Sequence record: PQ850621.1
DNA: 43,746 nucleotides
Source of the DNA: Escherichia phage NicoleGrasset_Bas72
Reading direction: 5' to 3' (one strand)
Part shown: piece after piece, positions 3,313-38,777 of the stretch
Position numbering within the stretch: position 1 is the stretch's first letter
How the letters are laid out: each line of letters opens with the position of its first letter
The notes under the pieces: model-generated
The model's input: only the letters and a program-made list of their open reading frames with translations
What the model was told of the DNA's origin: nothing
The model's database searches: none
Position numbers and translations under genes: made by a program

Positions 3313-3336
3313 ATAGCCCCGAAAGGGGCTTTCTTA
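3313..3336 (+). terminator. hairpin plus short T-tract between portal and head-morphogenesis genes (attenuator-like)
   Basis: AGCCCC gaaa GGGGCT then TTCTT. Confidence 0.35.
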
Positions 3337-4880: not shown

Positions 4881-4909
4881 AAAGGCCCCATTATGGGGCC
4901 TTAGTTTTC
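4881..4909. terminator. rho-independent terminator, likely bidirectional
   Basis: AGGCCCCA tta TGGGGCCT then TAGTTTT; A-run on the other side; between convergent genes. Confidence 0.6.
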
Positions 4910-5167: not shown

Positions 5168-5242
5168 ACTATTTATTTACGTATTCCATTTATTCCACTA
5201 AATTGTAAATATTGGAATAAACTATTCGAATAGTTGACTTTT

Positions 5243-5271
5243 CACTGAAAATGTGCTAAGCTCCACCTGAG
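5243..5271 (+). promoter_or_regulatory. promoter candidate TTGACT-N17-TAAGCT overlapped by a 16-bp palindrome
   Basis: -35 TTGACT at 5243-5248, -10 TAAGCT at 5266-5271; palindrome AACTATTCGAATAGTT at 5229-5244 overlaps the -35. Confidence 0.35.
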
Positions 5272-5439
5272 CTTGTGAAGTATGAACAAGCGACCGCGGC
5301 GCGGGCAGGTAACGGAGCGGGACGTAAGTCCTGAGTGTAGTTACGCTGACGCGTTCGGAAGGGCCATACTCTATTGCTTGTGTAAAAAGTAACAGGTTTA
5401 CTTAGATTACGCCGTTTCTATGTTTAAATGATAAGGACT

Positions 5440-5470
5440 AGCGCCCTGCTTTAAGGCAGGGCTTTACTTA
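5440..5470 (+). terminator. terminator-like hairpin upstream of the spanin genes
   Basis: GCCCTGC tttaag GCAGGGC then TTTACTTA. Confidence 0.4.
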
Positions 5471-33928: not shown

Positions 33929-33957
33929 ACTATAATAGCGAACTATTCACATGTCAA
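33929..33957 (-). promoter_or_regulatory. sigma70-like promoter TTGACA-N17-TATAGT
   Basis: On minus strand; upstream of acidic-protein gene 33397-33897. Confidence 0.6.
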
Positions 33958-33961
33958 TGGG

Positions 33962-33990
33962 CTTTTCTAAAATAATTAATATGGTACTAT
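33962..33990 (+). promoter_or_regulatory. weak promoter candidate for HTH regulator gene
   Basis: TACTAT -10 at 33985-33990 with AT-rich upstream region; -35 poor (CTTTTC). Confidence 0.3.
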
Positions 33991-36653: not shown

Positions 36654-36686
36654 GCCCCGACGTTCTGGCGTTGGGGTTTCTTTTTA
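36654..36686 (+). terminator. plus-strand terminator-like hairpin inside minus-strand operon
   Basis: CCCCGACG ttctgg CGTTGGGG (one G-U pair) then TTTCTTTTT. Confidence 0.4.
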
Positions 36687-36974
36687 CCGTTTAGCCAACC
36701 CTTCCAGCAAATTTTTATACTCTTCAAAATATTCCTCGACCAAATCATCGCCGAAATAGAAGTCGATATACTCGAGATTATCTCTTACGTTAAGCGATGC
36801 CGACATGGTGCTTAGTTGGCGTAAGCTAATTAGCTTCATTTCTGTTTCTACGCAGAAAGGCCGGTAGGTATCAAGATGGCAAGAGATATTGAAGCATAAA
36901 GCGAACTCTCCGGCCACGGAGTGAACCATATACACTTCGTTTTCTGCTTTATTGTGGAAAATTACGCCTTTCAT
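36684..36974 (-). CDS. hypothetical protein (96 aa)
   Basis: Co-oriented ORF; overlaps upstream gene stop. Confidence 0.45.
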   Translation of the reverse strand: MKGVIFHNKAENEVYMVHSVAGEFALCFNISCHLDTYRPFCVETEMKLISLRQLSTMSASLNVRDNLEYIDFYFGDDLVEEYFEEYKNLLEGLAKR

Positions 36975-37155
36975 TTCACGTTCTCCTTAATCCATGCTTC
37001 GACTTTATTACGGTCAAATGTTCCCGGTAAACGGCGGCCCATAACCTTAATACAGCAGTCAGGGAATTTGCCGCTGCGCAACCAGTTATTAATGGTCTGA
37101 CGTGTCACCCCGATACGCTCGGCTACCTCATTCTGTGTCATGTAATGTTGCATTT
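36971..37155 (-). CDS. small HTH DNA-binding protein (AlpA/excisionase-like fold), start at internal ATG
   Basis: HTH MTQNEVAERIGVTRQTINNWL; ATG at 37155 with AGGGGA SD; track ORF extends to 37267 but upstream part lacks SD. Confidence 0.55.
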
Positions 37156-37250
37156 TTATATCCCCTGTTTGTTTAGTGAAACCGAGTATAGGATAGCGGG
37201 AATGTAAAAGCAACCAACCCCTGCAATATTTAATCTTTACAAAAAAGTTA

Positions 37251-37280
37251 TTGAAAGTTCTTGACACATGTTTGTATAAT
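37251..37280 (+). promoter_or_regulatory. sigma70-like promoter candidate TTGAAA-N18-TATAAT
   Basis: In divergent control region; would transcribe through palindrome 37307-37347 toward hairpin 37482-37510. Confidence 0.35.
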
Positions 37281-37306
37281 GGTTTTGGGACTTGTATATA
37301 TATTAC

Positions 37307-37347
37307 GGAGTTGACGAACCCTCCCCGAGGGATTCGTCAACCCCTCC
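37307..37347. promoter_or_regulatory. long imperfect palindrome (operator or RNA stem candidate)
   Basis: GTTGACGAACCCTC ... GAGGGATTCGTCAAC, arms about 14 bp with a short central spacer and one bulge. Confidence 0.4.
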
Positions 37348-37481
37348 CAGACAGCTGAGATGCTTGCCTTGTGGTTTAAGGATAAGTGTATCTAAATCTC
37401 ATTTAAAGAAGTAACCCGCTGAAATATCTACTGTTTCTTAATGTGCCGTAGATTCGCAACCGTAAAAATGTAACGATTATT

Positions 37482-37510
37482 GGGCAGGCTTAGGGCCTGC
37501 CCTTTAGTTA
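37482..37510 (+). terminator. terminator-like hairpin in divergent control region
   Basis: GGGCAGGC ttagg GCCTGCCC then TTTAGTT. Confidence 0.4.
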
Positions 37511-37574
37511 CCAAGTAATAAGAATAAAGGCACAACAGTTTCGAAAGAATCACAACGGCAACGTAACTATTCTC

Positions 37575-37603
37575 TTGCACACCCCAACATAATAGGATAC
37601 TAT
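37575..37603 (+). promoter_or_regulatory. promoter, TTGCAC-N17-TACTAT family
   Basis: TTGCAC, spacer accccaacataatagga, TACTAT; about 35 nt upstream of gene at 37638. Confidence 0.55.
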
Positions 37604-37637
37604 TCACTTATCGAAACGAGACAGAGGAGTGAGGGTT

Positions 37638-37829
37638 ATGTTTAAGAAGGGTCAGTTGGTTAAAACTAAACGCGGAGGGCAATATGTATTAGTGTTGCAG
37701 GACGAGAGCGAGTATGACGAGGATAATCTGGTTGACGTATGGGGTCTGGTAAGAAAGAAAACTGGGTTCGCCTCCCGCGATAATTTAGAACTCATCGGCA
37801 ACAATTTTAAATTCAAAGGGACGAAGTGA
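37638..37829 (+). CDS. small early protein
   Basis: GAGGAG SD 8 nt before ATG 37638; downstream of promoter 37575-37603. Confidence 0.5.
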   Translation: MFKKGQLVKTKRGGQYVLVLQDESEYDEDNLVDVWGLVRKKTGFASRDNLELIGNNFKFKGTK

Positions 37830-38748: not shown

Positions 38749-38777
38749 TTGCACACTAATATAGAATAGGCTACTAT
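38749..38777 (+). promoter_or_regulatory. promoter, TTGCAC-N17-TACTAT family
   Basis: TTGCAC, spacer actaatatagaataggc, TACTAT; upstream of 38809. Confidence 0.5.

Follow-up and report, generated by a model that had tools for sequence, protein, structure and literature searches.

What does the gap between the replication genes and the rightward genes of Escherichia phage NicoleGrasset_Bas72 (sequence record PQ850621.1) do, and does it act as DNA or as RNA? The gap is 484 bp long, it separates a minus-strand helix-turn-helix (HTH) gene from the first small plus-strand gene, and it holds the region under study (37251-37510) within a stretch of 43,746 nucleotides (nt) that was analysed in full and is called the window hereafter. 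An initial annotation had seen there a promoter candidate, a long palindrome and a terminator-like hairpin, and had proposed an operator for an early/replication switch and/or a non-coding RNA of roughly 200 nt. Our analysis of the sequence and of its relatives indicates that these three elements most likely specify a single short non-coding RNA, which is folded and stands ahead of the rightward genes. Tentatively, and at slightly less than an even chance, we take this RNA to be a cis-acting, promoter-proximal leader and terminator cassette that would set the read-through of transcription into the plus-strand genes.

Promoter, folded 5' domain and terminator of a predicted RNA

The predicted transcription unit opens with P1, a sigma-70-type promoter (Table 1) that matches 11 of the 12 consensus positions and is the best plus-strand sigma-70 match of the whole window; the promoter candidate of the initial annotation is found exactly where it had been placed. 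Among seven phages that carry the same cassette, which we call type W, P1 is unchanged except for two bases of the spacer. A GenBank record of phage fBC-Eco01 (OM272052) lists P1 as a predicted host promoter and the terminator as well, both as software predictions that are given without interpretation.

The palindrome follows P1 and folds, as RNA, into a hairpin that we call stem II. Its arms, placed by the repeat finder at 37307-37321 and 37330-37344, give a folding energy of -24 kcal/mol, against -9.8 +/- 2.5 kcal/mol for shuffled sequences (z -5.7), and none of 200 shuffles was as good. The palindrome as first described, with 14-bp arms at 37307-37347, is real and its arm length about right; only its right end overshoots the hairpin, by 3 nt. 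Both arms are invariant among the seven type W phages, the sole substitution falling in the loop. In minimum-free-energy folds, a short helix closes the first 62 nt of the predicted RNA around stem II and a small stem I, which contains a (TA)n tract; the six further type W sequences in the alignment have one unit fewer. This tract is A/T-rich and -10-like, it lies early in the transcribed region (+8 to +21), and its sequence is such that it could be a sigma-dependent pause site. Further downstream, a patch that is hypervariable within type W contains the motif GCUUGCC, which, we suggest, could pair with the 5' arm of the terminator.

The terminator-like hairpin, reported initially at 37482-37510 and confirmed at that place, has a folding energy of -19.9 kcal/mol (z -3.7). 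In relatives, its stem shows a compensatory change from C-G to U-A, with one mismatched intermediate, and a change from A-U to G.U. The U-rich tail is present on the plus strand only, the minus strand having no T-run after the hairpin. A transcript running from P1 to this point would measure about 223 nt and end at about 37509, some 65 nt before the -35 box of the next promoter, P2. We infer the existence of such a transcript from a near-consensus promoter and a plus-strand terminator that enclose no conserved open reading frame (ORF), in a layout that recurs in every relative examined; to this extent, the sequence supports the RNA of about 200 nt that had been proposed.

The statement that the region contains no ORF holds in substance, in that none is conserved, but short ORFs do exist: two on the plus strand, of 35 and 40 amino acids (aa), and two on the minus strand, of 30 and 59 aa, with minus-strand ones annotated in some GenBank records. 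The 40-aa ORF is frameshifted by the (TA) indel in the six other aligned type W sequences, and the 59-aa ORF, which overlaps the terminator and P2, is broken by a 1-nt indel in Salmonella relatives. A protein-coding role was rejected, the short ORFs being frameshifted or wholly replaced in relatives. In phage LotteLoewe_Bas71 and other records, 'hypothetical protein' ORFs at 37428-37607 and 37248-37340, both on the minus strand, overlap P2, the terminator and the palindrome and are not conserved; it is very likely that the 'hypothetical proteins' listed for this region in several GenBank records are not real.

The region has no counterpart among catalogued RNAs. Rfam 15 gave no match at the gathering threshold in the whole window or in eight related loci, and at E <= 10 the best sub-threshold match within 37100-37700 (E = 0.24) covered the terminator hairpin only. 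The scan for transfer RNA and transfer-messenger RNA genes found none, and in the literature on transcriptomes and non-coding RNAs of Guernseyvirinae, Kagunavirus and Jerseyvirus we found no description of an RNA at this site.

A mosaic locus with a relative at the late operon

NicoleGrasset_Bas72 is a lytic Kagunavirus (Guernseyvirinae) whose host is E. coli. Parts of the sequence around the region match 389 phage records, and those fetched belong to the Guernseyvirinae, namely Kagunavirus from E. coli and Jerseyvirus from Salmonella. The 480 bases around the region are 99.4% identical to those of LotteLoewe_Bas71 and vB-Eco-KMB35, and a blastn search of 5,426 complete E. coli genomes (E <= 1e-5) found no counterpart in them.

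The comparison covered 38 distinct versions of the gap, from phage records as well as viral contigs. At least four types of 5' module that are not homologous to one another can be told apart in the slot that lies between the HTH gene and P2: type W, which is the one present here; type A, with four subtypes; type B, whose five variants differ at the apex and include one carried by Jerseyviruses such as SE2; and type C, in the K1G group. The left part of type W, comprising P1 and the palindrome, is found in only 20 phage records and is replaced elsewhere by unrelated sequence of similar length. Three 3' modules (T1, T2 and T3) were distinguished, T1 occurring in a subset of the versions, and the right end (37541-37640), made up of P2 and the ribosome-binding region, is present in essentially all 38 versions and with all cassette types. 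The sequences thus exchanged keep a common plan: each of the 38 opens with a strong sigma-70-like promoter, continues with long hairpins and has, before P2, a terminator or a terminator-like hairpin on the plus strand, and in every module combination the stem-loops begin no more than about 20 nt from the predicted start and are followed by a linker. In this comparison type W is one allele of a mosaic locus. The cassette type is independent of both the HTH protein and the N-terminus of the helicase-primase, type A being found with two N-terminal types.

The T1 module present here also occurs in type B cassettes, in phages of both E. coli and Salmonella. Its core of 35 nt, GCCGTAGATTCGCAACCGTAAAAATGTAACGATTA, is nearly invariant (22 distinct sequences), and the T1 sequence is 82-88% identical in Salmonella phages; with the wider query that matched the 389 records, identity was 82-94% among the Salmonella phages listed. 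The GenBank Jerseyvirus records NC_073219, NC_073171, NC_073173 and NC_073172 begin or end within or beside T1, which is probably an arbitrary point of linearisation. In cassettes that combine type A with T3 (L004, L007, L008, L012, L015 and L021), an alternative terminator hairpin, GGTGCCTTCGGCACC, is immediately preceded by a (CTCA)n microsatellite whose copy number varies.

A protein of 96 aa without a Pfam or PHROG family, gp96 (36684-36974, minus strand), accompanies type W in 19 of the 20 phage records; at 90% identity or above it never occurs in non-W records, and most phages of types A, B and C lack any homologue. The HTH gene that lies between gp96 and the cassette is common to type A phages, and phage UTI-CM001 has type W without gp96. 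We treat this co-occurrence as linkage and not as proof of partnership, although gp96 could be a functional partner.

Whether such cassettes are under selection as RNA can be judged in types A and B, type W being too uniform for covariation analysis or model building. The type A alignment comprises 29 distinct sequences from E. coli and Salmonella phages and was fitted to the structure, which biases it in favour of pairing; in it, 98% of the cells are paired and nine pairs have changed on both sides. Its covariation score is 0.253, compared with 0.082 after shuffling (none of 500 shuffles as high) and at most 0.031 when the partners are slid; RNAalifold, which is independent of that fitting, and the slid-partner control agree. 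Two G.U pairs of type A are invariant and, as they would be C.A mismatches on the opposite strand, they point to an RNA made from the plus strand. In both types, the basal stems are conserved and the tips are swapped for unrelated sequences that still pair, so that the five type B variants, with unrelated tips, form the same long hairpin (z -3.1 to -7.5). These compensatory changes and G.U wobbles argue for constraint at the RNA level. Judged by these alignments, type A is a well-supported RNA family, one that is missing from Rfam.

When the type A module served as the query, nearly all these genomes proved to carry a second copy at another place. In the window, R1, a covariance model derived from type A, reaches 137.6 bits at 5265-5381, within a complete cassette. 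The tail of the terminator hairpin of this cassette stops 17 nt short of the i-spanin ATG, with no promoter seen between the two. Upstream lies a further terminator-like hairpin (4882-4902), which the scan called on the minus strand; on its plus-strand side it is followed by AGTTTTC, and plus-strand transcription meets it. Given this upstream hairpin and the lack of a promoter before the spanin gene, the late genes appear to be reachable only by read-through, which would make the type A element a cis-acting leader at that position. Among the 180 matching phage records, 65 Salmonella phages included, 169 have the late copy at 95-99% identity, and it is thus better conserved than the HTH gene next to the early slot, which is 76-80% identical between the genera. 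Jerseyvirus SE2 has a diverged member at the same late position (E about 3e-9). A 15-nt pattern scan of the viral contigs returned many chance loci, and only 12 were confirmed by the model.

Types W and A have the same 5' topology, which consists of a closing helix, a short stem I and a long stem II, from about +1 onwards. Local alignment of the W RNA with the late-locus leader gave a score of 36, which is not significant against 27.6 +/- 4.5 for shuffled sequences. On present comparisons type W is a positional analogue of type A and not a member of its family.

Table 1. Positions in the window of the elements discussed, from the predicted RNA outwards
Feature	Position	Strand	Remarks
P1, sigma-70-type promoter	37251-37280	plus	TTGAAA-18-TATAAT; predicted start near G37287
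5' domain	37287-37348	plus	closing helix GGGA 37287-37290 / UCCC 37345-37348 around stems I and II; minimum-free-energy folds
Stem I	37294-37306	plus	small, AU-rich, (TA)n tract; weak, 3 bp
Stem II (palindrome), RNA hairpin	37307-37344	plus	16 pairs, one A.C mismatch, one bulged A, CCC loop
Hypervariable patch within type W	37365-37377	plus	variants GCCTTGTGG, GCCTTGGGG, GCCCAACGG, GTTTTAGGG
T1, conserved 3' module	37419-37540	plus	common to type B cassettes of E. coli and Salmonella phages
Intrinsic-terminator-like hairpin	37482-37502, with tail to 37509	plus	GGGCAGGCT-TAG-GGCCTGCCC, then TTTAGTT
P2, conserved phage promoter motif	37575-37603	plus	TTGCAC-17-TACTAT; upstream of first small rightward gene
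First of many small plus-strand genes	ATG at 37638	plus	
Leftward promoter candidate, HTH/replication operon	37213-37185	minus	-35 TTGCTT (37213-37208), 17-nt spacer, -10 TATACT (37190-37185)
60-aa HTH_17/excisionase-like gene	36971-37153	minus	heads leftward replication operon
Type A cassette, late locus	5234-5469	plus	ahead of late spanin and head genes; related loci L064-L114, L120 1604-1706
Late-locus promoter	5234-5262	plus	TTGACT-17-TGnTAAGCT
Late-locus stem I	5271-5291	plus	
Late-locus stem II	5294-5358	plus	long, bulged
Late-locus terminator hairpin	5443-5462	plus	then TTTACTT
i-spanin gene	ATG 5487	plus	then scaffold, capsid and tail genes
Copies of the P2 motif	5167-5136 or 5167-5139 (-), 14155-14130 or 14162-14134 (-), depending on the scan; 38749-38777 (+)		14162 copy TTGCGC; 38749 copy more diverged

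The surroundings of the cassette are those of a divergent control region. To the left, the HTH gene heads an operon that includes a helicase-primase of 744 aa (AAA_25), and a candidate promoter for this operon stands back-to-back with P1; it was read from the sequence, as it falls below the threshold of the promoter scan. It is kept in type A relatives, and its counterpart in type B is TTGATT-17-TATACT. Inside the leftward replication region, another pair of strong divergent promoter candidates, overlapping one another, occurs at 33929-33973 (minus strand TTGACA-17-TATAGT, 11 of 12 positions; plus strand TTCACA-16-TAAAAT, 10 of 12), and a further minus-strand candidate (11 of 12) at 31274-31246. 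To the right, the plus-strand genes continue through the lysis and structural genes around the permuted genome, with terminator-like hairpins in the intergenic gaps at 3315, 7834 and 38634. P2 would drive the first small rightward gene. It belongs to a repeated promoter motif of about 32 nt, TTGCACACCCCAAYATAATAGGRTACTATTCAC, in which a -35 box TTGCAC and a -10 box TACTAT flank a conserved 17-nt spacer, and which precedes small accessory genes on both strands. The conservation of the spacer suggests a phage-specific regulator or a strongly selected class of early promoter.

Weighing the possible roles of the cassette

The observation that type W is an allele of a mosaic locus, together with the presence of a paralogous cassette at the head of the late operon, leads us to favour a cis-acting leader over a free-standing small RNA (sRNA). 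According to this proposal, host RNA polymerase would start an RNA at P1, in a self-contained transcription unit, and the first 62 nt would fold into the closed two-stem domain, followed by about 130 nt of linker and conserved 3' module up to the end at the terminator. Early in infection, strong transcription from P1 would yield mostly the terminated RNA of about 223 nt, and the folded 5' domain would set how far polymerase reads through the cassette's own terminator and later ones into the small, lysis and structural genes. It might do so alone, as the put RNA of phage HK022 does, or with a phage protein, as with N or Q of lambda.

It is important to note that several observations weigh against this proposal. 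P2 stands between the terminator and the first gene, and the downstream genes are consequently not strictly dependent on P1, unlike those of the late locus. The U-tract of the terminator is short (UUUAGUU), and the late-locus hairpin of SE2 has no U-run at all, so not all such hairpins need be terminators. Model R1 has no match at 37251-37510, and the transfer of function from type A to type W therefore goes by position and topology alone; nor did R1 match the PL/PR region of HK022 (L116) at E <= 10, a comparison with put in which type W was not included. Non-homologous 5' modules fit poorly with one shared mechanism of binding to RNA polymerase. Pfam and PHROG scans of nine neighbouring proteins recognised only the HTH_17/excisionase-like protein, the AAA_25 helicase-primase and a DUF551 protein, and no N- or Q-like protein among them. 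Finally, the only RNA-seq study found for a Kagunavirus, that of vB_Eco_K1B4 (PMC12645636), deals with genes and not with intergenic transcripts; this phage carries type W and is about 97% identical at the locus.

A free-standing sRNA is the strongest of the other explanations, although we consider it rather unlikely. In this case, a moron-like gene would produce an RNA of about 223 nt that acts in trans on host or phage mRNAs or proteins, for instance by pairing through its C/U-rich linker or its conserved 3' module, or by serving as a sponge or decoy that binds a host factor or a defence system. The unit does have its own strong promoter and terminator, with the next genes served separately by P2, and whole cassettes are exchanged independently of their neighbours, as accessory modules are. 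The 3' core, nearly invariant between E. coli and Salmonella phages and without obvious structure, resembles a seed or a protein-binding site, and in types W, B and C the big hairpin is followed by C/U-rich stretches (CCCCUCCC, CCUUCC and CCCUCCUU). However, relatives carry type A in this slot, and the type A paralogue at the late operon is clearly a 5' leader. The complementarity of the W RNA to the rest of the phage does not exceed 11 nt, and the blastn search of E. coli genomes described above offered no target either, short seeds being beyond its reach. The short, interrupted U-tail is also atypical for Hfq-dependent sRNAs, and Rfam holds no match.

Less probable still is a role in RNA processing or stability, in which the long hairpins would serve as RNase III-type sites or as 5' protection and tune the stability or translation of the downstream message. 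The R0.3 site behind the T7 early promoters and the RNase III site in the lambda N leader are the analogues. Hairpins of 16-20 bp or more, nearly perfect and with small internal defects, are of the type that RNase III cuts, they lie just behind strong promoters at the starts of operons, and their sequence varies while pairing is kept; the SE2 late-locus hairpin without a U-run also fits. A U-tract terminator nevertheless follows in most cassettes, P2 intervenes before the genes here, and type A, in which internal loops and flanks are conserved, looks like more than a generic double-stranded RNA.

The palindrome as a DNA operator, bound by one of the phage HTH proteins and controlling the divergent promoters, was the first suggestion for this locus, and we now consider it highly improbable. 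In favour of an operator, the inverted repeat is strong and belongs to a region of divergent promoters beside an HTH gene, and type W co-occurs with a 96-aa protein encoded two genes away. On the other hand, the palindrome lies within the predicted transcript of P1 (+21 to +58) and is separated from the -35 box of the leftward promoter by about 95-130 bp, on the upstream side of that box, and its complementarity runs continuously to a 3-nt loop instead of forming two spaced half-sites. It does not track the HTH protein: phages in which this protein is 100% identical carry a type A cassette and have no such sequence, and the equivalent stems of the other types use G.U pairs and compensatory changes. 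An operator array was rejected in turn, for the palindrome is single-copy in the genome and its half-site, allowing one mismatch, occurs 20 times against 12 +/- 3.4 expected, which is within chance, with no clustering.

We give equally little credence to a replication origin, possibly a transcription-primed one, at which P1 transcription and the hairpin would open or prime the DNA for the adjacent helicase-primase. The region adjoins the replication module, has an AT-rich (TA)n tract and a strong promoter, and lies at the minimum of the cumulative GC skew (about 37 kb); this switch in skew coincides with the switch in gene strand and is confounded by it, there are no iterons, type A occurs with two helicase-primase N-termini, and the paralogous cassette sits in the late structural region.

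Three narrower ideas were rejected. The stem CCCCGC/GCGGGG of type C, which we take to be the same as that of the type I-E CRISPR repeat, raised the idea of a repeat mimic acting as an RNA anti-CRISPR; on inspection it lies inside a longer ordinary hairpin and its flanks differ. A boxA-like motif after the stems was dismissed on finding that the conserved core is CUAUUG and not GCUCUUUA, and a CsrA sponge on finding GGA at the count expected at random.

Significance and likeness to known systems

We consider it possible, if on balance unlikely, that Guernseyvirinae time their gene expression by promoter-proximal antiterminator or attenuator RNAs, with type A heading the late operon and the early slot holding analogous, non-homologous alleles such as W, each perhaps matched to a different phage or host partner. 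If so, these lytic siphoviruses, for which no late regulator is known, would have an RNA-based switch from early to late expression. Control of terminator read-through by the cassettes would explain when the late genes are expressed in this subfamily, and the cassettes would then be small regulatory parts that can be interchanged. Phages of the genera Kagunavirus and Jerseyvirus are often isolated and serve in therapy and as engineering chassis (CM001 and the BASEL phages Bas70-76, for example), and this locus and its late-operon paralogue offer concrete, mutable candidates for control elements. Elements of this kind are known; the family, its allelic mosaic and the link to the late operon appear to be undescribed.

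The closest layout is that of lambda PR', where a strong promoter, a 194-nt '6S' transcript and the tR' terminator are followed by antitermination through Q. The likeness lies in a strong, constitutive sigma-70 promoter, a non-coding transcript of about 200 nt and an intrinsic terminator before a lysis and structural gene array, and extends to the -10-like tract early in the type W transcript; the late-locus paralogue has exactly the PR'-tR' layout. Unlike in lambda, P2 stands behind the terminator here, the leader is highly structured, its alleles are non-homologous, and no Q-binding element is defined.

A second comparison is with the put RNA of HK022, a factor-independent, processive antiterminator that renders RNA polymerase resistant to terminators without protein factors (PMC9378689). 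In put, two adjacent stem-loops come right after an early promoter and before terminators, an arrangement that the W fold shares, albeit with a weak stem I. There are two related copies per genome in both cases (putL and putR; early and late type A), and pairing is kept as the sequence diverges. The 5' domains described here measure 62-130 nt, put being about 70 nt, and their alleles are non-homologous; by inspection, only short GC-rich words are in common with putL and putR, and the idea that type A is a homologue of put was rejected, R1 having no match there.

Phage sRNAs and morons resemble the cassette in having their own promoter and terminator, in lying in an early mosaic region and in being exchanged as modules, but no target, partner or Hfq-type tail is evident here, and the late-locus relative is a leader. 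Within the same phages, the type A leader RNA differs in stem II, which is long and bulged with conserved internal loops where that of type W is a near-perfect 16-bp hairpin. In setting and layout the two agree: they occupy the same slot on the same strand, and their parts come in the same order, from promoter, closing helix, stem I and stem II to linker and terminator.

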